Assembly: GCA_964490395.1 (NCBI GenBank)
Contig: CAZBAS010000001.1
Coordinates: forward strand, 83,815-147,814
Source: an uncultured Candidatus Saccharibacteria bacterium
GTDB taxonomy: Bacteria; Patescibacteriota; Doudnabacteria; UBA920
Reading direction: 5' to 3'
Length of the DNA: 64,000 nt
The stretch's first letter is position 1. Each line of letters opens with the position of its first letter. The translations under genes were made by a program, and so were the position numbers. Positions 11,926 to 62,167 of the stretch are shown in pieces. The notes under the pieces are model-generated. The model made no database searches. It was given only the letters and a program-made list of their open reading frames with translations, and was not told the DNA's origin.

Positions 11926-11934
11926 TAGTTTCAA

Positions 11935-11962
11935 AAAGCCGCCCTGCAAGGGCGGCTTTTTA
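11935..11962 (+). terminator. Rho-independent terminator of rpoBC (aaagccgccc-tgcaa-gggcggcttttt)
   Basis: Perfect 10-bp GC-rich stem followed by a T-run, 10 nt after the rpoC stop codon. Confidence 0.8.
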
Positions 11963-12049
11963 AATGTCCAATTTCTAATTCCTAATGTCTAATTGAATAC
12001 TAATAATCCCGATCTCCTTCATTAGATATTAGAAATTGGTAATTAGACA

Positions 12050-31798: not shown

Positions 31799-32470
31799 AT
31801 GCCAAAACCCATCATTAAGAATTTAGATCGCATAGAGCAGCCAAGAGAGAAGTTGCTTAAGTATGGAGTAGAGAAGCTCGGCGAGACTGAGCTGCTAGCC
31901 ATTTTATTACGTACAGGTACGGAGGGCAAAAACGTCCTGGTGCTTGCTCGCGAACTTCTAAAAAAGTTTCCGGGCACTTCCCTTGCCAACGCGTCCATTG
32001 AAAGTCTACGAAAGGTAAAAGGGGTGGGCGAAGTAAAGGCGCTAGAAATAGTGGCGTGTTTGGAGCTCGGAAGGAGATTACTCAAAGACAAACAGTCCGA
32101 GCTGGTTTTGTCACCCCGAGCCGTGGCCGAACAAATGAGCACTGAGCGCATAAGTAAAAAAGAACACTTTGTTGTGTTCTTTTTAGATACTCAAAACCAA
32201 ATCGTACGGAAAGAGCTTGTTTCCATTGGCACCCTTAACGCTAGCCTTATTCATCCACGCGAAGTGTTCGAGCCTGCAATTAAATTCTTAGCGTCGCATA
32301 TTATAGTGGCGCATAATCATCCATCGGGTAGCCTTGAGCCAAGCGAAGAAGATTTAGCAGTAACCAAGCGGCTGGGGGATGCAGGCAAGCTCCTCGGCAT
32401 TCAACTGCTGGATCACGTTATAGTTACCACCATCGGCTACATTAGTTTAAAAGAACAAAATTTGCTCTAG
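31799..32470 (+). CDS. RadC-like JAB-domain protein (UPF0758)
   Basis: N-terminal HhH (LSDTELLAILLRTG-like: LGETELLAILLRTGTEG) and the JAB motif HIIVAHNHPSGSLEPSEED. Confidence 0.85.
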   Translation: MPKPIIKNLDRIEQPREKLLKYGVEKLGETELLAILLRTGTEGKNVLVLARELLKKFPGTSLANASIESLRKVKGVGEVKALEIVACLELGRRLLKDKQSELVLSPRAVAEQMSTERISKKEHFVVFFLDTQNQIVRKELVSIGTLNASLIHPREVFEPAIKFLASHIIVAHNHPSGSLEPSEEDLAVTKRLGDAGKLLGIQLLDHVIVTTIGYISLKEQNLL

Positions 32471-33904: not shown

Positions 33905-35986
33905 ATGACAGATACAAACGAACCAAAAAAATACTCTGTAGAAGAAATACGCAAAACGCACCCGCGCATGGGCATGCGCTGGGACAAAGAAGAGGATGAG
34001 CGGCTTCAGGCAGCGTACAGAGAGTTCCTATCGGAGCAAGGACGTAGCTTCGATCCATTCTTAGACCAGCTGGTAAAAGATTTCGGCCGTGCTGCGGGCG
34101 GTCTTAAGGCACGCCTTGCTATGCATTTCGATGATGTGCCCGGCTGGGATTATGAACAGGACAAGTACCGCGCTGAAGGTTTAGAAAAAGAAGTGGAGGG
34201 CTTATTTAGTCCGGAAAAAGATGCGCTGCTAAAAAGTGAGTATGAAAAGTACGTGTCCACCAAAGCAGAAACGTACTTAGCTTTTGTAAAGCGCATGAAC
34301 GAAGCACTGGGCGGTATAGAGAATAAATATATTCGTCACCGTTTGGAAAAGCTTGTGGGGGCCATAGAAATGTACAAGCGTTCTGACCTGGCTCCTCAAA
34401 AAGCAAAGCGGGCGAGTAACTTGGAAGAACCGCTGGAGAACATAGATTTTTCCGGTAATCCAGAATCGGAAGAAGCGCTGCGCATAATGGATGAAACTAA
34501 CGAAAACCTTTTTCTTACTGGAGAGGCGGGAACGGGTAAGTCCACCCTCCTGCAGTATTTTAGAAGTATTACCAAAAAGAATGTAGTAGTGCTGGCGCCA
34601 ACCGGTGTAGCTGCGCTGAATGTAGGTGGCCAGACCATTCATTCATTTTGCGGTTTTGGGCCGGACATTACGTTGCCAAAAGTAAAGCGCCTCGGGTCGT
34701 GGGCACCAAAGAAAAAGCTTTTGCAAAAGGTGCATACCATAGTCATAGACGAAATATCTATGGTGCGTGCAGACTTGCTCGACTGTGTAGATAAATTCCT
34801 ACGGCTAAACGGCCCAGCAGGGCATATTTCGTTTGGCGGCATTCAAGTGGTGTTTATAGGTGACTTGTTTCAACTTCCTCCCGTGGAGAAAGATTTTGTA
34901 ATGCGCCGCGAATCCGCGCAGGCCGCGGGTTTATTTGACGGTGTAGATGAAGACCCGGATTCAGCTCCTACGCATGCCTCGGCGCATACATACGCTAGCC
35001 CGTACTTTTTTGATTCGCAGGTGTTTCGTACTACCAATTTTCGTCATGTAAGCCTTAAGCACATGTATCGCCAGCACGATCCTGTATTTATAGATGTGCT
35101 CAATGCAGTGCGCAACAATCGCGTCTCGCAGAACCACTTAACTGTGCTGAATAGCCGTGCGCAGTCCCAAGGTACAAAGTTTACGTTTGAACAGTTTGCT
35201 ATATACCTTACCCCCACAAATGCTCGAGCGCGCCAGGTAAACAATTTCTTTTTGGAAAAGATTCCTTCGCCACTTAAAACATACAAGGGTTCTGCTCGCG
35301 GCACGTTTGAAAATAAAGAACTGCCTACCGACCTGGACTTGCAAATAAAAATTGGCAGCCAGGTTATGATGCTAAACAACGACCAGCGCAAGCGTTGGGT
35401 AAACGGCACCATGGGTAAAATAGTTGGCATTGAAAAAGCGGGTGGGTCATCTCCCTTTAAGGCGGGGGCTTCCCCGTCCTTCCCTCCCCAAGCTCTGGGG
35501 AGGGGTAGGGGAGAGGTCGGTCTGACAATGCCCGAGCGGCCGCGAAGTATAGAACAAATAACGGACCCCGATCCATTTTCCTATGAATACATAGACGAAG
35601 AAGTACCGCCAGTTTTTTCCGCAACAGACACCATAGTAATAGAACTGGAAACCGGCGACACCGTATACGTGCAACCTCACACCTGGGAAATGTTTAAGTT
35701 TGTGTTGGACGGTGCAACCCAAAGTTTAGACAGCGAAGTCACTGGGTCGTTTACCCAATATCCATTTAAACTGGCGTGGGCAGTTACCATTCACAAAGCG
35801 CAAGGCAAAACATTTAATAAAGTCTATGTAGACTTAGCCACTGGTACGTTTGCGCATGGGCAGTTGTATGTAGCCCTGTCCCGGTGCCGTACCTTAGAAG
35901 GGCTATACTTAAAAGACCCCATTATGCAGAAGGATATTATTTTGGACAATCGGGTAGTAGAATTTATGAAAAGATTAACAGTATAA
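33905..35986 (+). CDS. Pif1/RecD-family SF1B DNA helicase with an N-terminal extension (Myb/SANT-like W..EEDERL) and a repeat-element insertion
   Basis: FLTGEAGTGKSTLLQYF, APTGVAALNV, IVIDEISMV and VFIGDLFQLPPV motifs. About 55 extra aa relative to the paralogue at 38063 include a GGGGAGG palindromic element (35445..35527). Confidence 0.85.
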   Translation: MTDTNEPKKYSVEEIRKTHPRMGMRWDKEEDERLQAAYREFLSEQGRSFDPFLDQLVKDFGRAAGGLKARLAMHFDDVPGWDYEQDKYRAEGLEKEVEGLFSPEKDALLKSEYEKYVSTKAETYLAFVKRMNEALGGIENKYIRHRLEKLVGAIEMYKRSDLAPQKAKRASNLEEPLENIDFSGNPESEEALRIMDETNENLFLTGEAGTGKSTLLQYFRSITKKNVVVLAPTGVAALNVGGQTIHSFCGFGPDITLPKVKRLGSWAPKKKLLQKVHTIVIDEISMVRADLLDCVDKFLRLNGPAGHISFGGIQVVFIGDLFQLPPVEKDFVMRRESAQAAGLFDGVDEDPDSAPTHASAHTYASPYFFDSQVFRTTNFRHVSLKHMYRQHDPVFIDVLNAVRNNRVSQNHLTVLNSRAQSQGTKFTFEQFAIYLTPTNARARQVNNFFLEKIPSPLKTYKGSARGTFENKELPTDLDLQIKIGSQVMMLNNDQRKRWVNGTMGKIVGIEKAGGSSPFKAGASPSFPPQALGRGRGEVGLTMPERPRSIEQITDPDPFSYEYIDEEVPPVFSATDTIVIELETGDTVYVQPHTWEMFKFVLDGATQSLDSEVTGSFTQYPFKLAWAVTIHKAQGKTFNKVYVDLATGTFAHGQLYVALSRCRTLEGLYLKDPIMQKDIILDNRVVEFMKRLTV
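35445..35527. repeat. GGGGAGG-type palindromic element (ccctcccc-aagctct-ggggaggg..gagaggtcggt) inserted in-frame in the Pif1 CDS
   Basis: It shares CTCCCC-N6-7-GGGGAG-N6-7-GAGAGGTCGGT with the intergenic copy at 62709..62765. It encodes SFPPQALGRGRGEVGL, which is absent from the paralogous helicase. Confidence 0.7.
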
Positions 35987-36346: not shown

Positions 36347-36745
36347 ATGCAAACATATTCATGGTACGCACAACTTAGTAAGCCGAGCTGGGCGCCGCCA
36401 AGTTGGCTGTTCGGTCCGGTGTGGACAGTATTGTATGCTGTTGTCGCAGTAAGCTACGGGTACGTAGTGTATTTATATATCCAAAAACGGGTGCCGTTTA
36501 TGGTTTTATTGCCGTTCATATTGAATGTGGTGTTCAACGCACTGTTCACCCCGCTGCAGTTTGGTTTGAAGAGTAATGTGCTTGCCTCGGTCGACATTGT
36601 CCTAGTCCTGGGTACGCTGTTGTGGGCGCTCATTGCTATATTTCCTCATGCCCGGTGGGTTGCGTATGTAAATATTCCCTATGTGTTGTGGGTATGTTTT
36701 GCTACCGTGCTGCAGTTTACTATTACGTATTTAAACCGCTCATGA
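36347..36745 (+). CDS. TspO/MBR-family tryptophan-rich sensory protein
   Basis: LSKPSWAPPSWLFGPVWTVLY matches the TspO N-terminal signature. The protein has five TM helices. Confidence 0.75.
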   Translation: MQTYSWYAQLSKPSWAPPSWLFGPVWTVLYAVVAVSYGYVVYLYIQKRVPFMVLLPFILNVVFNALFTPLQFGLKSNVLASVDIVLVLGTLLWALIAIFPHARWVAYVNIPYVLWVCFATVLQFTITYLNRS

Positions 36746-38062: not shown

Positions 38063-39565
38063 ATGATAATTCTGTTGTTTGCTTTAGCTCTCGTAGTTTT
38101 TGCTCTATTGGTTAGAGAGTTTAAAAAGGGTAAAAAAGTAGCTCGTAGTTCAGGCGGCGACCAGTCGCGTGAGCCAGTGGTGCAGCGTTCCACGCTTGCA
38201 AAGTTCGGCTTGGGTTTTCGCAGGAAAACGCAGCGCGTATTGGTCTTGGAAAAACCAAAGTTAGATCTTACACCAGAAAGCCGGTATGCTCTGCACTTAC
38301 TCGAAAACACCAGACAAGGTGTATTCCTTACGGGGAAAGCTGGTACAGGAAAATCTACGCTTCTTAAGTATTTTCGCGCGACTACAAAAAAGAATGTTGC
38401 AGTAGTAGCGCCCACTGGCGTTGCAGCTATAAATGTGCAAGGTCAGACCATCCATCGCTTTTTCAAGTTTAAACCGGACATCACCGTGGAGACGGTAAAG
38501 CAGTATGTGCCCCGAGAACAGGCGCAGCTCTACAAAAAGCTGGATGTATTGGTCATAGATGAAATATCCATGGTTCGCCCAGACTGGATAGACTGCATAA
38601 ACGCCTTTCTGCAGTTGCATGGACCGCGCCCGGGTCAGTTGTTTGGTGGTGTGCAATTAGTATTCATTGGCGACCTGTATCAGCTGCCACCGGTAGTAAA
38701 GCGTGAAGAAGAACATATTTTTCAAAGCTTTTACAACAGTGAATTTTTCTTTTCTGCCAAGTCGCTCCAAAGCTATCAGTTTGCGCCCATTGAACTTACC
38801 AAAGTCTATCGTCAGTCAGACGCAGAGTTTATAGAAGCGCTGAATGCAGTTCGCGAAGGCGAGGTGGAACACCGGCACCTAGACCTCCTTAACAGCAGGG
38901 TAGATGAAACAGTAACTACAGAAGACAGTGGCGAAGCGCTGCGCATTTGGCTTATGCCTAAAAAAACACAGGTGGCAGAAGTAAACAGTAAGCACATGGA
39001 AGCACTTCCGGGTAAGGGTCGCGTGTACGTAGGCGAAGTGGAAGGTGGTTTTGGCGTAGATGAAATGCCTACCTCGTTTGAACTTCACCTCAAAGAAGGG
39101 GCGCAGGTTATGCTGCTGAACAACGATCCGGGTGGTAAGTGGGTAAACGGCGACGTAGCTAAAGTAGTAGGACTTGGTAGAAACGGTGTGCGTGTGTTGT
39201 TTGAGGACGGGAGCTACGACGACATTGGCCTGCATACCTGGGATGCGTTTCGCCATACGCTAGATGCTACTACGGGAAAAATAGTTGCAGTGAGCGATGG
39301 CTCCTACACGCAGCTTCCGCTCAAGCCTGCCTGGGCGCTGACCATCCATAAGTCCCAAGGGAAAACGTACGACAAAGTAGTGATAGATTTTAGCGAAGGG
39401 GTGCACCATTCTGGGCAGGCCTATGTTGCGCTGTCTCGGTGTAGAAGCCTAGAAGGACTTACGCTTACCGCACCCATACGACGGAGTCATATATTTATTC
39501 ACCCCTTAGTAAAGCAGTTCATGACGCTTGCGTCACAGCGGTCAGAGCAGCTGGTACCAAAATAG
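38063..39565 (+). CDS. Pif1/RecD-family SF1B DNA helicase (paralogue of 33905..35986)
   Basis: VFLTGKAGTGKSTLLKYF, APTGVAAINV, LVIDEISMV and VFIGDLYQLPPV motifs, plus an N-terminal TM segment. Confidence 0.85.
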   Translation: MIILLFALALVVFALLVREFKKGKKVARSSGGDQSREPVVQRSTLAKFGLGFRRKTQRVLVLEKPKLDLTPESRYALHLLENTRQGVFLTGKAGTGKSTLLKYFRATTKKNVAVVAPTGVAAINVQGQTIHRFFKFKPDITVETVKQYVPREQAQLYKKLDVLVIDEISMVRPDWIDCINAFLQLHGPRPGQLFGGVQLVFIGDLYQLPPVVKREEEHIFQSFYNSEFFFSAKSLQSYQFAPIELTKVYRQSDAEFIEALNAVREGEVEHRHLDLLNSRVDETVTTEDSGEALRIWLMPKKTQVAEVNSKHMEALPGKGRVYVGEVEGGFGVDEMPTSFELHLKEGAQVMLLNNDPGGKWVNGDVAKVVGLGRNGVRVLFEDGSYDDIGLHTWDAFRHTLDATTGKIVAVSDGSYTQLPLKPAWALTIHKSQGKTYDKVVIDFSEGVHHSGQAYVALSRCRSLEGLTLTAPIRRSHIFIHPLVKQFMTLASQRSEQLVPK

Positions 39566-40035: not shown

Positions 40036-41427
40036 ATGGAGCTGCGCGATATAACACCTATTCCTACGGTGCCATCTGCACTTATCTATCCTAAAAAGAG
40101 TAAGTGGAAGCCGGTTGTTTTGGCTGTTCTTGTAGTTGGAGTAGTGTGTGTTGGTCTGTGGTATGCCATGCCGCGCATGCTTTCTTTGTTTTTTTCTGGC
40201 GACGAACAAAGTAAAGACGGTTCCAAGTTAGCACTTAGTAAAGTCACTGTCCCGGACAGGAGCAATGGATACTTTAGCCTTTCCAAGTTGACCAATGAAA
40301 CTGTGTTCGTGCCGGAGTCAAATAAGAATATTTATACTGAATACACAAACTACGCAAAACCTGTTTCTTGGAATCAAAATCTGGTAGACTCAGTACTCCA
40401 GAAAAACGCGCAACCACTTGCCGCGTTATCTGACGCAGCAAGTAAGCAGTATTTCCAGTTTCCCAAATATGCAGATCCTGGGAATATAGGCTCTGGTATG
40501 GAGCAGTATCCGCTTGAGGCCTACGAAAAACTAGCTCGCATACAGGCCATACAAGCGCTTTCACTCGCTCGCCAAGGTAAAACAAACGAAGCATTGGCAG
40601 AGGCTGCAAAACTTACTACCCTTGGGCACCATATTATTGTGGGGCACAATAGCTTGCCGGGAAACATGTTGGGCATTGCGGTGCAAAGGCTTGGTTCGGA
40701 AACCATGTTACAAATTCTTCAGCTTGGGAGTCCTGGTAAAGGTGCCTTGCTTAATGCGCTTAAAAAGGTAGATGAGTCTAGTACTACGCAAGAAGGGTAT
40801 GCAGACGCGGTTCGTTTCGAGTATGCATATGTAGTGGGGTCTATAGGCGCTTCTGTAAGCGCGCAGTTGCAAAGGGATATAGACCGCATGGCAACAGAAG
40901 GGTTTATTACTCGTTCTGTGGCAAAATACGCAAAGCACGGCTATTACTACAAGCCAAATCAAACCAAAGATTTATTTACCGAACTATTTACTGCGGAGCT
41001 CAGTCGGGTGGGGCAGGAGTGCACCATGCGTACGAGTACAGGGTCTAAAGCGCACAAGGTACAAGGGTGGAGGACCGTGTTCACCGAAAATGTAGTGGGC
41101 AAACTTTTGTTTTCCGCGTACGATAGTTCGCTTGGGGGCGTCTTCGCAAAGCAGTGCCAAAATGATTTAGCGTTAAATGTTGCCAAGGCCGAACTGGGGC
41201 TTGCGCTCTATAAAGTAGACCATGGGGTGGTTCCTGCAAGTTTAGATAAGATAGTCCCAGACTATATGCCGGCATTGCCCACGGACCCATATAGCAAACA
41301 GCCCCTTCACTACAACGCAAAAGATAAGCTTTTGTATTCGGTCGGGGAGAAAAAGCAGGACCTAGGCGGCAGTAGCGGCGAAGACTGGGCAGCCATGGAA
41401 AACCCTACATTTCACTTCTCGTTTTAA
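40036..41427 (+). CDS. Hypothetical membrane-anchored protein (N-terminal TM, large extracytoplasmic domain)
   Basis: The Shine-Dalgarno sequence aaggag lies 8 nt upstream. A single TM helix (VVLAVLVVGVVCVGLWYA) is present, with no recognised catalytic motif. Confidence 0.5.
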   Translation: MELRDITPIPTVPSALIYPKKSKWKPVVLAVLVVGVVCVGLWYAMPRMLSLFFSGDEQSKDGSKLALSKVTVPDRSNGYFSLSKLTNETVFVPESNKNIYTEYTNYAKPVSWNQNLVDSVLQKNAQPLAALSDAASKQYFQFPKYADPGNIGSGMEQYPLEAYEKLARIQAIQALSLARQGKTNEALAEAAKLTTLGHHIIVGHNSLPGNMLGIAVQRLGSETMLQILQLGSPGKGALLNALKKVDESSTTQEGYADAVRFEYAYVVGSIGASVSAQLQRDIDRMATEGFITRSVAKYAKHGYYYKPNQTKDLFTELFTAELSRVGQECTMRTSTGSKAHKVQGWRTVFTENVVGKLLFSAYDSSLGGVFAKQCQNDLALNVAKAELGLALYKVDHGVVPASLDKIVPDYMPALPTDPYSKQPLHYNAKDKLLYSVGEKKQDLGGSSGEDWAAMENPTFHFSF

Positions 41428-41487: not shown

Positions 41488-42288
41488 TTGTCTATGAATA
41501 AAAAAGGCATATTTGCTGGGTTTGTAGTTGCAGTGCTAGCTATAGGTGCCCTTGTGGGTTTCTGGCTTACTGCAAAAGACGTAGCACCCAAGCCAATTAC
41601 AAATACCATCACCCCTGGGCCTGTTCCTGTAGCAGAACCGCCTGCTCCAACTCCCGCGCCACCAGTTGCGGGTACGATGTTTGAAAACGCTTACATGAAA
41701 GTAACAGTTCCGCAAGGCTGGGCACTTACCGAAGTAACGGAAACTTTGCAAGACCAGCGGTACGACCAGGCCACAGGTAAAACCATAAAGGTGGGTGAAC
41801 CAAAGACTACTAAGAATGGTGCTGTAAATATTACCAAAGGGAAATATATTTTATACGTTCACCCCCAGGCAGGGCAGGCAAGCGGGGTAGATGGCGGCCG
41901 CTTTGCCGAAATTGCTATGGGTGCGCCTAGTGCGGACGCGGTAGTTGTGGAACAACCCAGTCCTCCCTGTGGTACAGAAAAAACCAGCGCAGTAAAAGTT
42001 GGGTGGACTCGCCACGACTGGTTTGTGAGCAGTGCGGATAAAAAGGACTATTGCGCAGTACCAAGTGGTAGTAGCGCCGTGTGGTATTTTTCCTACATTA
42101 CCGACTCTAAAAATGGCTACATAAACTACTACAATGCAGGCAGCCTTCCAGGGTGGGTTATAACTATGGGTTACAACTCTAAAACCGTAAATTCGCTTCC
42201 AGCTCAAAATAGTCCTGAACTTACCACAGCCCTTACAGAAATGACCAACATAGTAAAAACTCTAGAACTAAAACAGTTAGGTAAATAG
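41488..42288 (+). CDS. Hypothetical membrane-anchored or secreted protein
   Basis: N-terminal TM or signal sequence (IFAGFVVAVLAIGALVGFWL) and a Pro-rich linker. Confidence 0.5.
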   Translation: MSMNKKGIFAGFVVAVLAIGALVGFWLTAKDVAPKPITNTITPGPVPVAEPPAPTPAPPVAGTMFENAYMKVTVPQGWALTEVTETLQDQRYDQATGKTIKVGEPKTTKNGAVNITKGKYILYVHPQAGQASGVDGGRFAEIAMGAPSADAVVVEQPSPPCGTEKTSAVKVGWTRHDWFVSSADKKDYCAVPSGSSAVWYFSYITDSKNGYINYYNAGSLPGWVITMGYNSKTVNSLPAQNSPELTTALTEMTNIVKTLELKQLGK

Positions 42289-44165: not shown

Positions 44166-44192
44166 AAAGAGCCCTTACACGGCTCTTTTTTG
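44166..44192 (+). terminator. Rho-independent terminator (agagcc-cttacac-ggctct plus tttttt)
   Basis: Stem-loop plus a T-run. Confidence 0.6.
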
Positions 44193-44255
44193 TTCGCCAC
44201 AATATGGAAAATGGGGTAAAATTTATCTTATACTCTAGGTTTGTTGAGTAATTTT

Positions 44256-47200
44256 ATGGCGATATCAAAAATAGATACATCAGAATTGCGGAAAATAATC
44301 ACAGGGCGCGTAGTGCCTCATATTTATTCTTTTCTCACGAATACACTTCCAAACTACCTCAAGGTTGGAGACACCTATCGTCCGATTGAAGAACGCCTCA
44401 ATGAATGGCGCAGGTTTTATAAAGATCTAGAAGAGGTTTCTCGCCACCGTGCAATTATTAATGACGAAGTATTTTTTCGAGACTACGCTGTCCACAAATA
44501 TCTGCAGCAAAAAGGCATTTCGCAAATACCACGCAATGTTTCTAAAAATGTGTACTCGAATGAGTTTTTTGAGGGCGCCAAAAAATCTGATGTATCTAAA
44601 GCGATAGAGGATATTGTAAACAATTACCGAAAAGCCGACATTTATGAGTATTATAGTTATGACGATGCTAAAAGTTTGGTTGAGTACCACCATCCACGTA
44701 CGCTAGAGTTTGCGCCGCGCCAAAATCAACAAGAGGTTATAGACAATTTTGGTATCGCAGTAAAGAAGGGGCGTACCAATCTCCTTATGTACGCGGTTAT
44801 GCGCTTCGGAAAATCCATTACCTCTATGTGGAGCGCAAAAACCATAAATTCAAAATTTACGGTAGTCGTATCAGCTAAAGCAGATGTTCATTCGGAATGG
44901 AAGCACACAATCGAAAGTCATAAGGATTTCACCGGCTACCGTTTTTTGGATAAAAATGATCTAAAAAAAGGGATGAGATTGTCAGCTCTCTATGGCCAGA
45001 AATTTAAGACCGGAAGTGGCGACGAAGAAATTTGTACAAATATCGTTCTTTTTCTTACCTTACAAGATCTGGCAGGATCAACAGACGCTATCAAGGACCA
45101 TCACAGGATATTGCAGAGCATAAAGATAAATCTACTCATTATAGACGAAACGCATTTTGGTGCGCGAGCCCCAGTTCTCGGTAAAATTTTGGCTGGAGTA
45201 GAGGTTGATGAAGAGGATAAGAAATTACTCAAGAATGATAATGAGGATTCAGAAAATCTTGGTGCGCTGAATAAGCTGGGGCCGATTAATGCCGAAGTTA
45301 ATTTGCACCTTTCTGGCACGCCATACCGCATTTTGATGGGCAGTGAATTTGAGCAGGAAGATATAATTGCATTTGTACAATTTAGCGACATTTACGAAGC
45401 AAAGTTGCAGTGGAAAAGGAAGCATTTAGACGAAGACGAATGGGATAATCCATACTATGGTTTCCCACAGATGATTCGCTTTGCCTTTAATCCTAACGAA
45501 AGCTCCCGAAAAAAACTTGTCGATATTGCGGGTGGTAAGCCCGCTGAGTTATTTGAACCAGTTAGTAAAAAAAAGAGCGGAGATTACGAAATATTCCAGC
45601 ACGAGCAGGAGATTGTCGATCTCTTGGAGGTGCTGGATGGCTCAAAAAACGACACTAACATGCTTGGCTTGTTAGATAATGAATCGGTTAAAGCTGGAAA
45701 GCTTGCGCAGCATATAGTTATTGTTTTGCCCTATTGCGCTTCATGCGATTCGCTTGAGAAGCTTGTACTTAAGAATAAAAAACTGTTTAGGAATATTTCC
45801 GAATATGAAATTTTTAACATCAGTGGTTTCAATAAGGTCCTTGCTACGCCTGAGCAGATAAAATCCGCAATTGCCAAAGCAGAAGCAGCAGGTAAAAAAA
45901 CTATTACCCTCACGGTTAATAAGATGCTTACCGGCGCTACTGTGCCCCAGTGGGATACAATGATTTACCTCAAGGGTACTGCAAGTCCGCAAGAATATGA
46001 CCAAGCGATATTCCGTCTCCAGTCACCATGGGTAAAAAGGTACGAGGGCGAAAACGGTAACGTCATCAAATACGATATGAAGCCGCAAACGCTTTTAGTA
46101 GATCTCGACCCGACGAGGTTATTTCATCTGCAGGAGCTGAAGGCTTTTACCTACGGTGCGAATACTGAAAACTTCGGTAATGAAAGGATAGAAGAATTTA
46201 TTAAGCGGGAACTGGCCATTTCGCCCATTATTACGTTAAACGCCGAAGGTAACAAGCTTGTAGAAGTAACCGCAACGAATGTTATTGACGAAGCCCGTAA
46301 GTATTCCAATAGCCGTACCATCACAGAAGACGTACAAGAAATTGGCGTTGATGTGTCTCTAAAAGATAATCCGGCAATTTTTGAAGTTATTAGTAAGCTG
46401 GCAGAGCTGGGTAGTAAGAATGGGCTAAACATAAGGCCGAACGTAGAAGAAGGTGGTGAATGGGACGGCGTAGCCTCGCAGGGTGATGTTGGGGAATTTG
46501 ATGATGCAATAGCTCGCCCTGGTAAAGACAGTTCCGGGGTTACCGAAGACATTTCCTCCTTTGAAAGACGTTTCCGGACATACTATGTAATGATTCTGCT
46601 ATTTGCATTTCTTTCAAATACCAAAGAAAAGTCTTTGGCTGATGTTATACAACATATTGACGCCGATGAAAATAATCGTCGTATTGCTCGCAACCTTGGT
46701 TTGAAAAAGTCTGACCTTGAGGTGTTTCGAAATAACCTCAACCCTTTTATCCGCTCAGAGCTCGATTATAAAATTCAGAATGCAGATTTTCGTTCAAGCG
46801 ACGACAGTATCACACCGGTTCAGCATTTAGATATTGCAATTCATAAGTTTGGTCGGCTGTCTGAAGCGGAAGTGTTTACCCCCTCTCGTATTGTTAGTAA
46901 GATGTACGACGCATTTGATGTAAAGTTCTGGCGTGGTGCTAAAGGAGTGAAAGTTCTTGATATTGCCAGTAAGTCAGGGGTTTTTGCTAAAGGTTTTGTG
47001 GAAAATGCCCTTAAACACGGATTAAAAATAGAGGAGATTAAAAATAACTTTTACTCTATTCCAACTTCACCCGCAGCGTATGAATTTACTCGTAAAATGT
47101 ACCAGGCGCTTGGTCTAAACCTGGATAATATTGCCAGACACTTTAATTCATTTGATCTTATTGCGCGGAGTGAGGAGGATGTGCGACTTCTGCTCTCGCA

Positions 47201-48263
47201 AAACAAAAAGTTTAGCGACATACGCCTTAGTGACCTCGAAAAACCTGCTAAAATGAAAGATATGAGCAATAGTAGTATGAAATTTGCAGCCGTTGTAGGA
47301 AATCCGCCGTATCAGATAAATACTGATACTAATTTTGCAAAGCCTGTTTACAATCAGTTTTTTGAATTTGCAAAAGCACTTGGTCCTAGTTATGTCGCTC
47401 TAATAATGCCAGCGCGTTTTCTGAGTAATGCAGGGGCTACCCCAAAAGAATGGAATAAAAAGATGCTTAATGATCCGCATATTTCTATTCCGATTCACGA
47501 GTTAGAGTCCGAGAAGGTTTTTACAGGTGTAGACATAAAAGGCGGTATTGTCGTAGTGTTTTGGGACAAGAGTAATCCAAGTGGTGGTTTAGGGGGGCGA
47601 TATATCCGGTCGGAAGAGTTGAAGCTGGTATTGGCAAAAACCAAAACTGGTGGATTCGACGCTGTCGTAGGGCCAAGGGGGGAAACAAAACTAAAGATCG
47701 TTCTAGATGAAAAATACCCTAATGATTTACGTATTGCACCGAATTATTTCGAAAGGTTCCCCAATGTATTTAAAAAAATACAAGATTCCAAACACCAAAT
47801 AAAGATAATAGGTTTAGAAAAAGGGAATAAGAGAACCTCGCGATATATTAGCCAGGATATAGTTAACGACCCTAAGCTCAAAAAGTGGAAAGTATTTTTG
47901 CCAGAATCAAATGGAAGTGGCGCAATCGGTGAGGTGTTGAGTACGCCCCTTGTAGGGGAACCCCTTGTAGGGTGTACGTATACTTTCTTGCAAGTTGGCT
48001 CGTTTAATAGTCGGCTAGAAGCCGAAAGTTGCATGAAGTATATTAAAACCAAGTTCTGTCGCGCTCTGCTCGGTACTATCAAGATTACCCAGCACAATAC
48101 GAGAGACGTGTGGAAGAATGTACCTGTTCAAGATTTTACCAAAAAATCGGATATCGACTGGACGAAATCTATTACTGATATAGATAAACAGCTTTATAAA
48201 AAGTACGGCCTTGATAAGCATGAGATAGATTTTATTGAAGCTAATGTCAAAGCCATGAACTAG
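44256..48263 (+). CDS. Single-polypeptide restriction-modification-like enzyme: N-terminal GIY-YIG-like module, Type III-Res-like SF2 helicase, and gamma-class (Eco57I-like) N6-adenine DNA methyltransferase with a C-terminal specificity region
   Basis: Residues about 25-80 resemble GIY-YIG (HIYSFLTNTLPNYLKVGDTYRPIEERLNEWRRFYKDLEE; compare I-TevI ..FEKRWKRHFKDLEKG). Helicase motifs are FAPRQNQQE, Walker A MRFGKSITS, IIDETH, SGTPYR and QAIFRLQSP. MTase motif X (EVFTPSRIVSKM), motif I (VLDIASKSGVFAKGF) and motif IV (GNPPYQ at 47301..47312) follow. A TTG at 44241 is an alternative start. Confidence 0.85.
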   Translation: MAISKIDTSELRKIITGRVVPHIYSFLTNTLPNYLKVGDTYRPIEERLNEWRRFYKDLEEVSRHRAIINDEVFFRDYAVHKYLQQKGISQIPRNVSKNVYSNEFFEGAKKSDVSKAIEDIVNNYRKADIYEYYSYDDAKSLVEYHHPRTLEFAPRQNQQEVIDNFGIAVKKGRTNLLMYAVMRFGKSITSMWSAKTINSKFTVVVSAKADVHSEWKHTIESHKDFTGYRFLDKNDLKKGMRLSALYGQKFKTGSGDEEICTNIVLFLTLQDLAGSTDAIKDHHRILQSIKINLLIIDETHFGARAPVLGKILAGVEVDEEDKKLLKNDNEDSENLGALNKLGPINAEVNLHLSGTPYRILMGSEFEQEDIIAFVQFSDIYEAKLQWKRKHLDEDEWDNPYYGFPQMIRFAFNPNESSRKKLVDIAGGKPAELFEPVSKKKSGDYEIFQHEQEIVDLLEVLDGSKNDTNMLGLLDNESVKAGKLAQHIVIVLPYCASCDSLEKLVLKNKKLFRNISEYEIFNISGFNKVLATPEQIKSAIAKAEAAGKKTITLTVNKMLTGATVPQWDTMIYLKGTASPQEYDQAIFRLQSPWVKRYEGENGNVIKYDMKPQTLLVDLDPTRLFHLQELKAFTYGANTENFGNERIEEFIKRELAISPIITLNAEGNKLVEVTATNVIDEARKYSNSRTITEDVQEIGVDVSLKDNPAIFEVISKLAELGSKNGLNIRPNVEEGGEWDGVASQGDVGEFDDAIARPGKDSSGVTEDISSFERRFRTYYVMILLFAFLSNTKEKSLADVIQHIDADENNRRIARNLGLKKSDLEVFRNNLNPFIRSELDYKIQNADFRSSDDSITPVQHLDIAIHKFGRLSEAEVFTPSRIVSKMYDAFDVKFWRGAKGVKVLDIASKSGVFAKGFVENALKHGLKIEEIKNNFYSIPTSPAAYEFTRKMYQALGLNLDNIARHFNSFDLIARSEEDVRLLLSQNKKFSDIRLSDLEKPAKMKDMSNSSMKFAAVVGNPPYQINTDTNFAKPVYNQFFEFAKALGPSYVALIMPARFLSNAGATPKEWNKKMLNDPHISIPIHELESEKVFTGVDIKGGIVVVFWDKSNPSGGLGGRYIRSEELKLVLAKTKTGGFDAVVGPRGETKLKIVLDEKYPNDLRIAPNYFERFPNVFKKIQDSKHQIKIIGLEKGNKRTSRYISQDIVNDPKLKKWKVFLPESNGSGAIGEVLSTPLVGEPLVGCTYTFLQVGSFNSRLEAESCMKYIKTKFCRALLGTIKITQHNTRDVWKNVPVQDFTKKSDIDWTKSITDIDKQLYKKYGLDKHEIDFIEANVKAMN

Positions 48264-48264
48264 C

Positions 48265-49185
48265 ATGGTAAGAACAATAAACGCCGACATTTTAGAAAAT
48301 ACGCTTCGGCGGGCTGATGACCTGCTTGATATTCTTTTGTTAGATCGTACTACAGGCAAGAATATTATTTGGGCAACCGATTCGTATGAAACTTGCGGCA
48401 AGGCGTTTGCGCCTCGTGGATGCGTTAAACCAGAATTAGTTACTGGTAAGGTCTATGGCAAGCTTATTCAGCCGCGTGCAGTAAAAAGCCAAGAAGAACA
48501 GCGCCGTCGCACGAAAGATAAAGGCGAAGTGTTTACGCCACTCAAAATTGTCGATCAAATGAATAGATTGACCGATACGGTTTCTGTGAATGAATTGAAT
48601 TGGCAAGAATATATTGCTGAGCTCAAACTCGAAATAGCATGCGGCGAGGCGCCATTTATCGTCAGCCGTTATAATCCCATCGCTCAGGGTGTAGTAATAA
48701 AAATTGAGAATCGTGTGGGGTTTCTTGATAGGAAACTTCAAATTATCTCAAAGTACTGTTCAAAACAAAAAGAATGGTTGAAGTGGGTAAAACTAGCATA
48801 TCAAAGCTCTTACGGTTATGAGTGGCAGGGTGATAGTTTGCTTATTGCTCGCGAGAACTTATTATATACTTTGATTGATTACTACAATGAACAATTTGGT
48901 CGTAAGCCGTCAATTACCATACAGCGTGAATTCGCCGAAATAATTAGCTGGAATATTTTTCAAATGGATGGTCTAAAATATGTTGTGCCAATGAGCTGTA
49001 CAGATGGAATTAAGGGTGGACCTGTTCAATTAACGCTTTTTGGGGAAATCGCAAGTATTCCTAAGAAACAAGTATGCGAAGGCTGTAAATATAATAATCC
49101 AAAAAAACACAACGGTAAGTATGTTAAGATTATGGATTGGACTAAAAATAGAGCTGTAAGATTTGTGGACCTGATAAAATCTTAA
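48265..49185 (+). CDS. Degenerate gamma-MTase-like protein (motifs X and I present, no NPPY), a putative specificity or regulatory partner of the fused enzyme
   Basis: GEVFTPLKIVDQM and LEIACGEAPFIV with TaqI-like spacing, and no DPPY/NPPY. The start overlaps the upstream stop codon (TAGcATG). A C-terminal CEGC motif is present. Confidence 0.55.
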   Translation: MVRTINADILENTLRRADDLLDILLLDRTTGKNIIWATDSYETCGKAFAPRGCVKPELVTGKVYGKLIQPRAVKSQEEQRRRTKDKGEVFTPLKIVDQMNRLTDTVSVNELNWQEYIAELKLEIACGEAPFIVSRYNPIAQGVVIKIENRVGFLDRKLQIISKYCSKQKEWLKWVKLAYQSSYGYEWQGDSLLIARENLLYTLIDYYNEQFGRKPSITIQREFAEIISWNIFQMDGLKYVVPMSCTDGIKGGPVQLTLFGEIASIPKKQVCEGCKYNNPKKHNGKYVKIMDWTKNRAVRFVDLIKS

Positions 49186-49196
49186 AATAGATAATT

Positions 49197-49628
49197 ATGC
49201 CATCCAACAAACAATCAGGAGATGCTGGTGAAAAAGAAGTTATAGAGCTTATTCTGTGTCCTAATTGTAGGAAGAAACTTATGTTGCTTCCACCTAGTTA
49301 TCCATTGTTTGATGTACAGTGTACGGGTTGTTCTTTTCGGGCACAGGTAAAAACGAATCAGTCCAAGCCCAAGAAAGAGATTTTTGGTGCCGGGTGGCAG
49401 ATTATGGAAAAGGTTTTAAAGTCTGGATATATTACGCCACCTCTTATTGCGAATTTTAAATGGACAGATAAAGCTGGAGATCATCAAGAAATTCGGTTTT
49501 ATCCATTTATACCGAAAAAGAATCTTAAGAAGTACCAGCTTCCTGCGCACGCGAGGCGTGCCAATTACTGGATGTTTAATTATATTGGCTTAGACGAACT
49601 TCCGTATTTTACGGAATATATAAAATAA
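49197..49628 (+). CDS. Zn-ribbon protein with a possible PD-(D/E)xK-like nuclease core; third gene of the module
   Basis: CPNC..(24)..CTGC zinc-ribbon. GDAGEKEVIELI resembles the N-terminal helix of Hjc/Mrr-type nucleases, and D..QVK is present. It lies 11 nt after the preceding gene. Confidence 0.45.
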   Translation: MPSNKQSGDAGEKEVIELILCPNCRKKLMLLPPSYPLFDVQCTGCSFRAQVKTNQSKPKKEIFGAGWQIMEKVLKSGYITPPLIANFKWTDKAGDHQEIRFYPFIPKKNLKKYQLPAHARRANYWMFNYIGLDELPYFTEYIK

Positions 49629-49828
49629 AATATTTCATTACAAGGGTGACCCTTGTAATAGCAGTAGGGGGTTTCTTCGAAGCTGGTATGCAAAATTGCA
49701 TGTTGGCTTTTTTGTTTGGTTTTGGGTATAGTGGGGGTACGCTGGAAGTGTAAATGTGGAATTATAGGATGCGCCTGAAAAGGGTTACCCTTTTGTGGCG
49801 CGGCAGAGCAATTATTTTTTGAAACAAA

Positions 49829-50377
49829 ATGTTCTCACACTTATTTGGGTTTTGGGGCTGGGTTATTTTGGTAGTTGTGGTGGGGCTGGCGATTGTAGGT
49901 TTCTTTCTCGATGCCGCAAGGGAAGGTGTGGTGGGCCGTAGGGAGTCAGGTTATAAACGTAAAAAGTATCTGTTTGATGCAAATAGCGAGTTTGAGCTGT
50001 ATAAGATGTTGGTACGATTGTACGCGAATCAGTATCGTATTTTTGCTCAGGTGAACTATAGTCATCTTTTGGAGTCGAAGGATCGGGGCTTTGTTGCTTC
50101 CAGGGCTGGGCGAAGTCGTATAGATAGAAAATCTGCAGACTTTGTTTTGTGCGAGTTTGAATCAGCTGCGCCGTTGTTAGTCATAGAACTTGATGGCAGT
50201 GTTCATGGTACCGCGAAAAAGCATGAGCGAGATGTGTTTATAGACACGGTGTGTGCGGAGGCAGGGCTGCCCATCTTGCACTTAGAGGTGGGTAGCTTTG
50301 ATGAATTCCAACTTAAAACCCTAATACAACAAAAACTACCCGCACAACCAAACTCTAACCCTTATTCGCGCGAATAA
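49829..50377 (+). CDS. DUF2726 (NERD/restriction-endonuclease-like) domain protein with an N-terminal TM anchor
   Basis: IDRKSADFVLCEFES..PLLVIELDGSVH..RD.FID is the DUF2726 signature. Its 3' end lies within the palindrome cccTTATTCGCGCGAATAAggg. Confidence 0.55.
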   Translation: MFSHLFGFWGWVILVVVVGLAIVGFFLDAAREGVVGRRESGYKRKKYLFDANSEFELYKMLVRLYANQYRIFAQVNYSHLLESKDRGFVASRAGRSRIDRKSADFVLCEFESAAPLLVIELDGSVHGTAKKHERDVFIDTVCAEAGLPILHLEVGSFDEFQLKTLIQQKLPAQPNSNPYSRE

Positions 50378-59506: not shown

Positions 59507-62167
59507 ATGAAGAGATACATATTATCGACGATCGTACTCGCTCTTATTGTCCTGCCACATATTGCGACGGCACTGATTTTTATCCCTACAGCTAATATAG
59601 TCATAATTACTAACACCGCCCCTTCAGACGGTGTTTTTAATTATCATTTATCACAAGGGTTAGTAGGTGTAAGTACTTGGCATACGAATACTGTTAACGG
59701 GACGTCAACGTATACTATTCCTTTTTTAGTTGCGCACCCAGACAGCTATACAATATACCAAGAGCAGCAAAGCGGGTTAAGTACTTCGGTGTTCTGTTCC
59801 TCCTCAAATAACAACTCAACATTCAACGTTTCAGGTAGCCAAGTAACCGTTACTCTGTATCCTGACGATTTAGTAACTTGTACTTTTACTAGCGCAGTAG
59901 AATCGACTCAGGATAAAACATTGCTCATCCCCGGAATTCTAGGCACAGAATTTTTTAAAGGCGATACAAAGTTGTGGCCAGATACAACGAAGATGTTATA
60001 TACAAACAATGATAGGTTCATGGATCCGCTAAGTTATGCACCGTCTGGTGGTCCAATCGACTTCTCTGCAGTCACAGGTGATATTTTGGGTAAGCCTGCG
60101 ATAACTTACGATTACTCATCTCGTATTATTAATGATCTACACCAGCGCGGTTACGTTGATAATGAGACGTTATTTACTTTTCCCTATGACTGGCGTAAAG
60201 ATATCAGCGATATTGCTTTGCAAGACTTAAAAGCAAAGATTGATGCACTCGTACCGGCGGGGAGCGGGAAGAAAATAGATGTGGTGGCGCATAGCCAGGG
60301 CGGGTTGGTTATTAAGTATTTGTTATATTCTCAGCCCGAGTATAGGTCTAAAATAGGGAAATTAATTTTTGTCGGAACTCCGCACTTGGGTGCGCCTAAG
60401 GCAACCAAGGCCCTTTTGTATGGTGATGCCATGGGCGTGGATTTACTCGGACTTGGTTTGGACCCGCAAGAAATAAAGCGCATTGGCCAAAACATGCCCA
60501 GTGTGTACGAGCTCATGCCTAGTGAAGAATTTTTCAATCATGTTTTAGTTGGCTACTTGGGCACCACCGAGAAAGTTGGTTTCCTTTCCGGTATAGAAAA
60601 AATAAATATTTACGACTACAACACAACCAAGCAAGTGCTAAAAGACAAGGGTTTGAATGCTACGTTAATAGATAGTGCGCAAGCCTTTCACGACCCTGCA
60701 CTCGATAACTTCGACTTTAGTGGTACAGGTATAGACACCTACAACATAGTGGGGTGCCAAGATGCGACCATGGGAAGAATCTTTTCCAGGAGCAATGGCA
60801 AATATCGCATAGAGTATGTGGCAGGTGATGGTACTGTGCCCATAGTTTCTGCAAATAATGTTGGCGTTGGCCATACATACTACGCATTGGAGACGGAGCA
60901 CGGCACTATGCTTACGGGCGATGGTACACGCGAGCAAATAGAGGCAATTTTAGCCGGTAACAGTAGTGCGGTTACGAATAAGATAACTACCAATGCCGCC
61001 GACTGCCATTTTACCGGTGAGCAGGTAAGTGTACATAGTCCGGTAGATCTCCATATTTATGATGAGAACGGCAACCATGTTGGCCCTACTGCCAGTGGCG
61101 GTTTTGATTATCAAATCCCTCATGTGCAGTACGATGTCTTAGGCGAAGAAAAATTTGCTTTTCTTCCTCCAGGGCATACCTACCGCTTAGAACTGCCAGC
61201 TACGAGCGCAGGCACCTTTGACCTTTATACAGAAAAGATAGAAACAGGATCGCTTACATCCAGCGCATATTATCATAGTGTGCCCATTGCTTCCACGAGC
61301 AAGGCATCTGTAGTCCTAAACAGTAGCAATAGTCAAATTTTGCAGTTAGATGCAAACGGCGATGGCACTACAGATAGTTTTCTGGCACCTACTTCGGTGC
61401 TTGGTCCTGCAGAATTATCGGACGTGTTAGCGTCGGTTACAAAGTTGGTGGCAACTGGTACTCAGGGCTTACCAGGGTGGTACAGATCAAACGTGGCCCT
61501 GGCTTTTTCGGCCATTGATTATGCTCAGTCGGGGTCGGATCCTGCTGGAGTGCTCGATATAAAATATAGCTTGGACGGCGGAGTGGTAGGGGTTTACACG
61601 GCGCCGCTCACGGTGGCCTCGGAAGGTATGCACGTGGTGAAGTTCTACGCTACGGACAGAGCCGGGAACAGTGAGGCACTACAAGAATTTACATTTACCA
61701 TAGATAAAACTGCACCAGAAGCTGTGCTTACTTTTACGGTGCAAGCCAAAGATATACTTGCTACTGGGTATGATGCTTTAGATTCCAGTCCGGTGGTAAT
61801 AGACAGCGGTGACAGAGTATACATGGCCGACAAAGCAGGGAATATAACAGTGGTAGGCCTGAGCGAAAAAGATAGAAAGAAAAAGCTTAAAGCCGAACTC
61901 GTGTCACTTTCTTACAACGGTGTACTGCAAGATCTTGCAAAAAATAAGTTCTCATACGCTTGGGAGTTCGACAAGAATGCAAAACTTAAGAAATTAGAAC
62001 AACAGGCAAAGTCCAAAAAAGATTTTAACGTAACCGCGGGCTACAATGGCTCGACCACTAAGGTAGAAGGGAAAGACGCTACAGGTAAAATTAAACAAAC
62101 GTACCCCGCACTGAAACTGCTGCAAATAAAAACCAACAAAGGCGACTTGGACTGGTCATTGTTGTAA
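59507..62167 (+). CDS. Secreted lipase/esterase-like alpha/beta hydrolase (AHSQGG nucleophile motif) with C-terminal beta-rich Ig-like domains
   Basis: Signal peptide, LLIPGILGTEF oxyanion region, and VVAHSQGGLV (class-2 lipase/PGAP1-like). Confidence 0.65.
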   Translation: MKRYILSTIVLALIVLPHIATALIFIPTANIVIITNTAPSDGVFNYHLSQGLVGVSTWHTNTVNGTSTYTIPFLVAHPDSYTIYQEQQSGLSTSVFCSSSNNNSTFNVSGSQVTVTLYPDDLVTCTFTSAVESTQDKTLLIPGILGTEFFKGDTKLWPDTTKMLYTNNDRFMDPLSYAPSGGPIDFSAVTGDILGKPAITYDYSSRIINDLHQRGYVDNETLFTFPYDWRKDISDIALQDLKAKIDALVPAGSGKKIDVVAHSQGGLVIKYLLYSQPEYRSKIGKLIFVGTPHLGAPKATKALLYGDAMGVDLLGLGLDPQEIKRIGQNMPSVYELMPSEEFFNHVLVGYLGTTEKVGFLSGIEKINIYDYNTTKQVLKDKGLNATLIDSAQAFHDPALDNFDFSGTGIDTYNIVGCQDATMGRIFSRSNGKYRIEYVAGDGTVPIVSANNVGVGHTYYALETEHGTMLTGDGTREQIEAILAGNSSAVTNKITTNAADCHFTGEQVSVHSPVDLHIYDENGNHVGPTASGGFDYQIPHVQYDVLGEEKFAFLPPGHTYRLELPATSAGTFDLYTEKIETGSLTSSAYYHSVPIASTSKASVVLNSSNSQILQLDANGDGTTDSFLAPTSVLGPAELSDVLASVTKLVATGTQGLPGWYRSNVALAFSAIDYAQSGSDPAGVLDIKYSLDGGVVGVYTAPLTVASEGMHVVKFYATDRAGNSEALQEFTFTIDKTAPEAVLTFTVQAKDILATGYDALDSSPVVIDSGDRVYMADKAGNITVVGLSEKDRKKKLKAELVSLSYNGVLQDLAKNKFSYAWEFDKNAKLKKLEQQAKSKKDFNVTAGYNGSTTKVEGKDATGKIKQTYPALKLLQIKTNKGDLDWSLL

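Follow-up and report, generated by a model that had tools for sequence, protein, structure and literature searches.

Among restriction-modification (RM) enzymes of Type ISP, LlaGI and LlaBIII combine an Mrr-type PD-(D/E)XK nuclease, a superfamily 2 (SF2) helicase, a gamma-class N6-adenine methylase and a target-recognition segment in a single polypeptide, which methylates one strand of an asymmetric site, translocates by means of ATP and cuts elsewhere. Classical Type IIG enzymes, such as Eco57I, MmeI and BpuSI, join a PD-(D/E)XK head to an Eco57I-family gamma methylase in one protein, have no helicase, need no ATP and cut at a fixed distance. The DNA methyltransferases M.AquI and M.EcoHK31I are split into two polypeptides each. 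The conserved DnmA(YeeA)-YeeB-YeeC cluster, in which a gamma methylase of the MmeI type, an SF2 helicase and a T5orf172/GIY-YIG protein occur as three proteins, was proposed by Morgan et al. (2009) to be a Type I-like RM system (PMC2731913), and its homologues in Vibrio crassostreae were reported to affect phage sensitivity (PMC9973331). Here we analyse three adjacent genes (genes 1 to 3) in a 64,000-nucleotide stretch of DNA from an uncultured Candidatus Saccharibacteria bacterium (contig CAZBAS010000001.1; hereafter the window, in whose numbering positions are given), of which genes 1 and 2 probably encode a two-subunit, ATP-dependent RM system that acts in defence.

The three genes are arranged as follows.

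44256-48263, + strand: gene 1, 1335 amino acids (aa), stop codon at 48261-48263; a longer open reading frame (ORF) runs from TTG 44241
48265-49185, + strand: gene 2, 306 aa, predicted stand-alone N-terminal, S-adenosylmethionine (SAM)-binding half of a gamma methylase
49197-49628, + strand: gene 3, 143 aa, "mini-DpnI" with a predicted Zn-ribbon and a PD-(D/E)XK-like domain

Translation places the ORFs where the original prediction had put them; that prediction had taken the locus for a three-gene module headed by a fused polypeptide, and for a candidate novel RM or defence system of Type ISP-like design. The junctions were also described correctly: genes 1 and 2 meet at ...aacTAGcATG..., where a single base separates stop from start, and 11 nucleotides lie between genes 2 and 3. 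Gene 1 likely starts at ATG 44256 (1335 aa), not at TTG 44241, because its homologues begin at "MSKIDTSEL".

Domain architecture of the gene 1 protein

Motifs and family matches identify gene 1 as a predicted T5orf172(GIY-YIG)-SF2 helicase-gamma N6-adenine methylase-specificity polypeptide in one chain, with the following predicted modules.

44256-44705, + strand: residues 1-150, T5orf172-class GIY-YIG-like domain
44706-46415, + strand: residues 151-720, SF2 helicase/translocase
46416-46865, + strand: residues 721-870, linker or coupler, no family match
46866-47555, + strand: residues 871-1100, gamma-class N6-adenine methylase core
47556-47855, + strand: residues 1101-1200, hypervariable segment
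47856-48260, + strand: residues 1201-1335, conserved C-terminal domain

Both this order, which Pfam and the motifs support, and the motif sets named beforehand for head, helicase and methylase are borne out by the gene 1 translation, which also carries every residue that is invariant in a family alignment of 30 sequences. The profile comparison suggested beforehand gave matches for the helicase and the methylase (Pfam ResIII on residues 152-304, expectation value (E) 8e-6; Eco57I on residues 930-1089, E 8e-17), and for the head through its homologues. Residues 1-140 themselves gave no match to Pfam T5orf172 (PF10544) even at E ≤10, whereas the N-termini of 15 of 24 homologues (40-71% identical) match that family, with a best E of 1.3e-8. 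Residues 1-150 are readily aligned with the N-termini of full-length homologues, and more distant clades have canonical T5orf172 heads.

The head is marked by the motif IYSF...YLKVGDTYR...NEFF. Residues Y24, K36, G38, R42, R47, R75, D76, H80 and S101-x-E103-F-F are invariant across 24 sequences, and the Tyr/Arg/Glu set of GIY-YIG nucleases, here Y24, R42/R47 and E103, is thereby kept in 24 of 24. As had been suggested, the structure of the N-terminal module was predicted: the AlphaFold model of residues 1-165 is confident, with a predicted local distance difference test score of 84.5, and shows the β-β-α-β-α order of GIY-YIG domains (strands 22-27 and 34-40, helix 44-51, strand 59-65, helix 76-85). 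The N-terminal family profile found no match among the chains of the PDB, and Pfam gave no Mrr or PD-(D/E)XK family match in gene 1. We accept the head as a putative GIY-YIG/T5orf172 domain at the family level, because homologous N-termini match PF10544 and the residues of the catalytic set are invariant; the structural support for this assignment we grade as weak. T5orf172 is a family of the GIY-YIG clan, and the T5orf172 protein Gp88 of phage ICP1 has been described as an origin-directed nuclease (PMC8263062).

The helicase has the Walker A motif MRFGKS, the motif DETH (IIDETH), SGTPYR and QAIFRLQ, all invariant in the 30-sequence alignment. Besides ResIII, this region gives a weak match to Helicase_C and also matches the PHROG_16 DNA helicase. 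The methylase core contains motif X (EVFTP, residues 872-876), motif I (LDIASKSGVF), motif II (FYSIPTS), motif III (NSFDLI) and motif IV (GNPPYQ, residues 1015-1020). Motifs X, I and IV (NPPY) stand in the gamma order, which together with the Pfam Eco57I match places gene 1 in the gamma class, and motif II is without the usual acidic residue.

Conservation along gene 1 is lowest in residues 726-775, an acidic stretch within the linker, and in residues 1101-1200. The latter are 21-43% identical to the window's in proteins that are otherwise 60-78% identical to it, and keep 67-76% identity in some more distant relatives. From this mosaic pattern we read the segment as a swappable specificity segment: sequence comparison indicates that it is exchanged as a cassette between relatives, in the manner of target-recognition modules of RM enzymes, and it is probably the target-recognition determinant. 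About 250 aa had been assigned to target recognition, and the conservation profile and the pairwise identities uphold this for residues 1101-1200 and not for residues 1201-1335, which are conserved. This C-terminal domain is matched by PADLOC MTase_II PDLC03375 (residues 1197-1334, E 1.9e-32), and the same domain ends both free 345-aa "NPPY half" proteins and fusions of gene 2 to a C-half.

Individual relatives vary from module to module. One (L018/P0024) shares 75-76% identity with the window's protein over head and helicase, 21% over residues 1101-1200 and 30% over the C-terminal domain. In other clades (L014, L015, L074 and L061), the C-terminal domain is 70-74% identical and the helicases only about 25%.

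Gene 2 encodes a predicted half-methylase

The gene 2 protein matches the PADLOC profile MTase_II PDLC03390 (E 8e-96) and no Pfam family, and NCBIfam has no family for any of the three proteins. Its sequence contains motif X (EVFTP), motif I (LEIACGEAPF), which we take to resemble LEPACAHGPF of M.TaqI, motif II (YGYE) and motif III (QMDGL), and has no (D/N)PP(Y/F/W) motif IV, so that it does not amount to a complete gamma methylase domain. The C-terminal segment is rich in Cys and His, with C245, C271, C274 and H282 invariant. In an hhalign comparison, gene 2 and residues 840-1130 of gene 1 are collinear over motifs X, I, II and III (E 1.4e-4, probability 53%), a match that taken alone is weak evidence. 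The only DNA repeat common to the two genes, 19 nucleotides long and 84% identical (46864-46882 and 48521-48539), encodes their common motif X, (A/G)EVFTP.

The decisive evidence that gene 2 is the N-half of a gamma methylase comes from fused and split relatives. A search of 1.8 billion representative proteins with the gene 2 profile gave 2,009 matches, many of which are proteins of 630-717 aa whose gene-2-like N-terminus is fused to a "MKFDFVIGNPPYQ..." half (P0376, P0383 and P0396 are such fusions). The fused half ends in the C-terminal domain of gene 1, "...DIDWTKSI.EID.QLYKKYGL...EI.FIE", and the Pfam Eco57I profile runs across the junction, with residues 243-406 of P0376 corresponding to profile positions 24-171. 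Three-gene split loci (L095 and others) encode a gene-2-like protein of 312-331 aa, a second one of 345 aa whose sequence opens at NPPY, and a third of 1098-1140 aa. The 345-aa protein covers positions 73-171 of the Eco57I profile and has its counterpart in residues 1197-1334 of gene 1. The largest protein matches T5orf172 (E 2.6e-5) and ResIII (E 1.4e-14), and its C-terminal tail contains motifs X, I, II and III and ends just before motif IV. Moreover, the modules are permuted in some relatives: L111 and L115 encode a gene-2::C-half fusion together with a nuclease-helicase-N-half protein, and P0463 is a gene-2::nuclease-helicase fusion.

These arrangements identify gene 2, as far as sequence can tell, as a conserved paralogue of the SAM-binding half of the gene 1 methylase. 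They likewise indicate that the system always encodes five predicted modules, namely a GIY-YIG head, a helicase, a helicase-tethered N-half, a catalytic and specificity C-half, and a free N-half, the first four of which are fused in gene 1 of the window. Since fusions exist both ways (tethered N-half to C-half, and gene 2 to C-half), both N-halves presumably contact a C-half. The label "methyltransferase" appears to be misleading for gene 2, because gene 2 alone has no catalytic half.

Two other assignments of gene 2 were rejected. "WNIFQMD" might be taken for a degenerate NPPY and gene 2 for an inactivated full methylase; the true NPPY half follows gene 2 in the fusions, and "QMDG" is placed at motif III because the Pfam Eco57I match spans the junction between gene 2 and the NPPY half. 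An assignment to the PD-(D/E)XK or HNH nucleases ("DRK", "C..C...HN") is backed by neither profiles nor structure.

Genes 1 and 2 form the conserved unit

The genomic context of gene 2 was sampled at 86 loci in all, five of them reached via gene 1 homologues and 80 genomes via gene 2. At the five loci, the direct neighbour of the giant gene (the gene 1 homologue), upstream or downstream of it depending on the locus, encodes 305-333 aa and shares 38-73% identity with gene 2. In the 80 genomes, a giant helicase-methylase gene adjoins gene 2 wherever the contig extends far enough. The pairing spans bacteria of the candidate phyla radiation (CPR), Bacteroidota, Firmicutes, Actinobacteria, Gammaproteobacteria and Chlorobi, and the giant genes concerned fall in several clades, in some of which the helicase is only about 25% identical to the window's. 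All these clades have a T5orf172-type head, "...VYVYSIP...GRLKIG..." or "...VYSYILP...GSQKIGYTE...EWFYF". Gene 2 is conserved more strongly than any part of gene 1; at L007, for example, the gene 2 partner is 73% identical and the giant protein only 25% in its helicase. As essentially all loci whose flanks are long enough have gene 2 directly beside the giant gene, gene 2 appears from these comparisons to be an obligatory partner of gene 1, and the conserved unit to consist of two genes. That the giant protein has a partner gene had been predicted, and gene 2 is that partner.

Some loci of the system lie beside further genes of interest. In a Saccharibacteria genome (L003), a gene for an OLD-family ATPase/TOPRIM protein (10980-12854) stands beside the two genes, and in Gardnerella (L006) SLATT and SMODS genes and Cas3 do so (10093-11952 and 15467-16080). 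Free-standing DUF4357 (faint RAMA) or T5orf172/MUG113 genes occur just upstream of the giant gene at L001 (7112-7945) and L003 (5249-5860), so that these loci hold a second GIY-YIG-type protein.

Shortened, solitary gene 2 homologues were also found on IMG/VR viral contigs (L112-L169, mostly 30-60 kb), with no giant gene, NPPY half or helicase of the system in the fetched flanks (≤6 kb on each side). The homologue at L124 (5890-6741) has 283 aa, is about 42% identical over residues 31-242 and is without the Cys/His segment; it lies within a phage-like replication module that also encodes a DnaB-like helicase and a DNA invertase. Such copies may be anti-defence decoys or orphan half-methylases.

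Gene 3 is a DpnI-like gene of independent distribution

Gene 3 matches Pfam DpnI (PF06044; E 1.9e-7, 31.3 bits against a cutoff of 26.7), and its family profile matches R.DpnI itself (PDB 4ESJ, E 0.0011). Like R.DpnI, it has a predicted Zn-ribbon and PD-(D/E)XK catalytic domain, aligned to DpnI residues 28-152. Unlike R.DpnI, it has no C-terminal winged-helix methyl reader, since it ends at residue 143, equivalent to residue 152 of the 257 in DpnI. In the sequence D39...Q50-V-K52, moreover, a Gln that is invariant in 30 sequences aligns to the catalytic Glu64 of DpnI.

The original three-gene module does not stand. Gene 3 is present in only one of the 86 gene-2 loci (L057), and genes 1 and 2 in only one (L199) of the 66 gene-3 loci flanked by 1.5 kb or more. 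Three gene-3 contexts inspected one by one contain no gene 1/gene 2 system, and no neighbouring family recurs in more than seven loci. There are 1,642 relatives of gene 3, 72-90% identical among the matches listed, and those with a source name come from CPR bacteria or Nanoarchaeota. Their loci (L087-L089 and L170-L249) have no fixed neighbour and are often near assorted methylases. Judged by its relatives, gene 3 thus appears to be a mostly solitary and mobile gene, nuclease-like in sequence and with a tendency to lie among RM genes, and not a conserved member of the system; its co-transcription with genes 1 and 2 is probably a local arrangement of this locus only.

Comparison with known systems

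Genes 1 and 2 resemble Type ISP enzymes in that the nuclease, SF2 helicase, gamma N6-adenine methylase and specificity segment follow each other in a single chain, and by analogy they would share the logic of one-strand methylation of an asymmetric site, ATP-driven translocation and cutting elsewhere. The likeness suggested in the original prediction, with the Mrr head replaced, therefore holds for the order of modules, now with a T5orf172 head. Actual Type ISP membership is contradicted by several differences: the predicted nuclease is of the T5orf172/GIY-YIG and not of the Mrr type, a second subunit appears to be conserved in place of the single polypeptide, and the specificity segment measures only about 100 aa. 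In addition, no chain in the PDB, LlaGI and LlaBIII included, was matched by gene 1 at E ≤1, either with phmmer or with hmmsearch and the 30-sequence family profile; gene 2 likewise had no match in the PDB, whether searched by single sequence or by profile. The best reading is that the two genes have a Type ISP-like logic without detectable Type ISP homology and are not a Type ISP enzyme.

Compared to Type IIG enzymes, gene 1 shares the combination of a nuclease and an Eco57I-family gamma methylase in one protein, and the PADLOC profile REase_MTase_IIG PDLC03626 matches its residues 6-1124 of 1335 with 1030 bits. A second methylase-like gene adjoins Eco57I too, but that companion is a complete methylase with its own specificity, whereas gene 2 appears to be half a methylase. 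Because of its 570-aa helicase and of a GIY-YIG-like head in place of a PD-(D/E)XK head, gene 1 falls outside the biochemical definition of Type IIG.

By analogy of described activities, the nearest conceptual relative is the unfused DnmA/YeeB/YeeC cluster, which likewise brings a gamma methylase, an SF2 helicase and a T5orf172/GIY-YIG protein together. It differs in that T5orf172, helicase and methylase are fused here, the methylase is of the Eco57I type and an extra half-methylase is present. The split methyltransferases offer another parallel: L095-type relatives divide the methylase between motifs III and IV, and their polypeptides would have to associate. Unlike in those enzymes, two alternative N-halves are available for each catalytic half, one of them tethered to the nuclease-helicase.

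The family is large. A search of 5.8 billion proteins with gene 1 gave more than 4,600 matches in many phyla, whose source name is "Eco57I restriction-modification methylase", and full-length relatives (45-74% identical) occur in Saccharibacteria, other CPR bacteria, Bacteroides, Flavobacterium, Gardnerella, Tissierellia and others. At the module, PADLOC matches are to RM profiles only, with no match to its profiles of BREX (bacteriophage exclusion), DISARM (defence island system associated with restriction-modification) or other named defence systems. The architecture is thus not novel as had been claimed, given the PADLOC matches of both genes and thousands of public relatives. The original prediction had itself named a catalogued REBASE subfamily as an outcome that would speak against it, and in substance this is what PDLC03626 points to, since the PADLOC RM profiles are, we presume, built from REBASE entries. 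What the window holds is an ordinary and intact representative of a family that is large and catalogued but experimentally uncharacterised; relative to the systems that have been studied by experiment, this family is a new variant of restriction-modification.

Genomic setting of the locus

The remaining features of the locus and the neighbours named in the original prediction are as follows.

49636-49710, + strand: two hairpins 3' of gene 3 (consensus matches only)
31799-32470: RadC
33905-35986 and 38063-39565: two Pif1-like SF1 helicases

The second hairpin (49679-49710) is followed by a T-run and is likely the end of the transcription unit, and the gene upstream of gene 1 is closed by a hairpin with a T-run at about 44166-44195. 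Given these terminator-like hairpins at both ends and the tight junctions, genes 1-3 look like one transcription unit; promoter-like sites at the locus are no more frequent than expected by chance. The unit forms a low-GC insert of about 5.5 kb, with a G+C content of 0.40-0.42 against about 0.47 on either side. Searches around the module found neither direct nor inverted repeats at its flanks as marks of an insertion, and near-identity DNA searches with the 5.4-kb module found no match in plasmid, phage and E. coli genome collections.

The neighbours are ordinary chromosomal genes, encoding TsaD, pirin, PspC, TspO, a GDSL lipase, hydrolases, RadC, a pterin dehydratase and the two Pif1-like helicases; RadC and the Pif1 helicases were thus rightly predicted to be nearby. 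The scan of ORFs at about 24.9-62.2 kb of the window revealed neither an integrase nor a phage gene, and no transfer RNA gene was found in the whole window. After the Pif1-like genes come two ORFs that match a family in neither Pfam nor PHROG (40036-41427, 463 aa; 41488-42288, 266 aa), and this group upstream of the module may be another accessory or defence-related cluster. Directly downstream, past the terminator-like hairpins, lies a gene for a DUF2726 protein (49829-50377; PF10881, E 2e-21). The window also has a TspO/MBR gene (36347-36745) and an LCAT/DUF7379 gene (59507-62167), and LCAT/DUF7379 and TspO genes are likewise present on a 65-kb metagenome contig with a gene 3 homologue (L088), a co-occurrence that may hint at what kind of organism is involved.

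Proposed mechanism and alternative explanations

We regard it as probable, with some reservation, that genes 1 and 2 constitute a two-subunit, ATP-dependent RM system with a role in defence, because of their domain content, the intact invariant residues, the pairing of gene 2 with a giant gene across phyla, the fused and split relatives and the mosaic specificity segment. The low-GC insert and the defence-gene neighbours of the system elsewhere (OLD-family ATPase, SMODS plus SLATT, Cas3), a setting of horizontal transfer and defence islands, also back this reading, as do the description of ICP1 Gp88 as a nuclease and what has been proposed and reported for the DnmA/YeeB/YeeC cluster and its Vibrio homologues. 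In such a system, the C-half would read a short, probably asymmetric site and methylate one adenine, whereby the host DNA would be marked. An unmarked site would set off ATP-driven translocation by the helicase, and the GIY-YIG head, with its single active site, would nick or cut away from the site; double-strand breaks would probably need two enzymes. Site marking, translocation and remote cutting are expected here because Type I, Type III and Type ISP enzymes behave in this way. Gene 2 would dock on the catalytic half in trans and be required either for methylation or for deciding between methylation and restriction, and one possibility is that it supplies the SAM-binding half for methylation, because its YGYE is canonical and motif II of gene 1 is without the acidic residue. 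For any specific role of gene 2, our confidence is much lower than for the RM system as a whole.

Several points weigh against an RM system of this kind. The altered motif II of gene 1 and the unusual motifs of gene 2 leave the SAM-binding N-half ambiguous. The B. subtilis DnmA/YeeB/YeeC proteins gave no phage protection under the conditions tested (PMC9973331). Literature and PDB searches found no characterised member of the family, and no methylation motif, cleavage or phage protection is on record for any member.

A more elaborate form of the proposal, which we consider unlikely, is that the catalytic and specificity half pairs with either the free or the tethered N-half and that the docked N-half acts as a switch, deciding between methylation of self DNA and ATP-driven translocation with cutting of non-self DNA. 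The solitary, shortened gene 2 copies of phages of about 55-60 kb would then be decoys that jam the switch, a new kind of anti-restriction protein.

The result from B. subtilis, where the analogous unfused proteins showed neither restriction nor phage protection (PMC9973331), would fit a modification-only system or epigenetic relic, in which the methylase is active and the nuclease-helicase part no longer restricts. We think this improbable, as the nuclease and helicase motifs are invariant among the relatives and intact in the window, the specificity segment is actively exchanged and the two genes are strongly conserved as a pair; all this speaks for selection that still acts on the machine as a whole. 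Slightly less probable still is exclusion in the manner of BREX or DISARM, where methylation would label self, unmarked DNA would be kept from replicating by the helicase complex and T5orf172 would only bind DNA. Pfam describes T5orf172 merely as a domain, annotations often call it DNA-binding, a catalytic GIY-YIG fold has weak structural support and the PglX proteins of BREX were once listed as Type IIG (PMC12707154), but the Tyr/Arg/Glu set is invariant and the PADLOC profiles of BREX, DISARM and other defence systems are without a match.

It is very unlikely that the locus is a three-gene system with gene 3 as its effector, in which genes 1 and 2 would mark DNA, for instance that of an invader, and the DpnI-like protein would cut the methylated DNA; under the same heading we place the variant in which gene 3 is the real nuclease and T5orf172 merely binds DNA. 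Both draw on the tight packing within bounding hairpins, on the DpnI-family domain and on L057 and L199, where gene 3 adjoins such systems too. Against them, gene 3 is absent from 85 of the 86 gene-2 loci, genes 1 and 2 are absent from 65 of the 66 gene-3 loci with no recurrent neighbour in their place, and gene 3 has an invariant Gln for the catalytic Glu and no methyl-reading winged helix. Least likely of all, in our estimate, is a selfish or counter-defence function for a mobile element, either as a DarB-like methylase-helicase that guards incoming DNA or as a homing-type T5orf172 nuclease cassette. Although IMG/VR viral contigs carry 139 gene 2 relatives, among them solitary copies as well as complete systems, and T5orf172 is common in phage homing endonucleases, the module is set among chromosomal genes with no integrase or phage gene in the scanned ORFs, and most loci are on bacterial contigs in settings like defence islands.

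Biological significance

If genes 1 and 2 work as proposed, they would represent a fourth design of translocating restriction enzyme beside Type I, Type III and Type ISP, built from a GIY-YIG cutter and a methylase divided into interchangeable halves. The database labels "Type IIG" and "Type II methyltransferase" appear to mask a helicase-dependent two-subunit machine, whose "methyltransferase" partner, gene 2, is predicted to be unable to methylate alone. The most interesting leads are this half-methylase partner, its permutations and its solitary phage copies, and the swappable specificity segment of 100 aa could be of interest for engineering. Scoring picked up more than 4,600 giant proteins of the family and about 8,000 partners, and the family is frequent among gut Bacteroidota and Firmicutes, in Gardnerella and in the very small genomes of CPR bacteria and Saccharibacteria. 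As it is so large and widespread, its specificity and mechanism matter for gene flow and for resistance to phages in many microbiomes.

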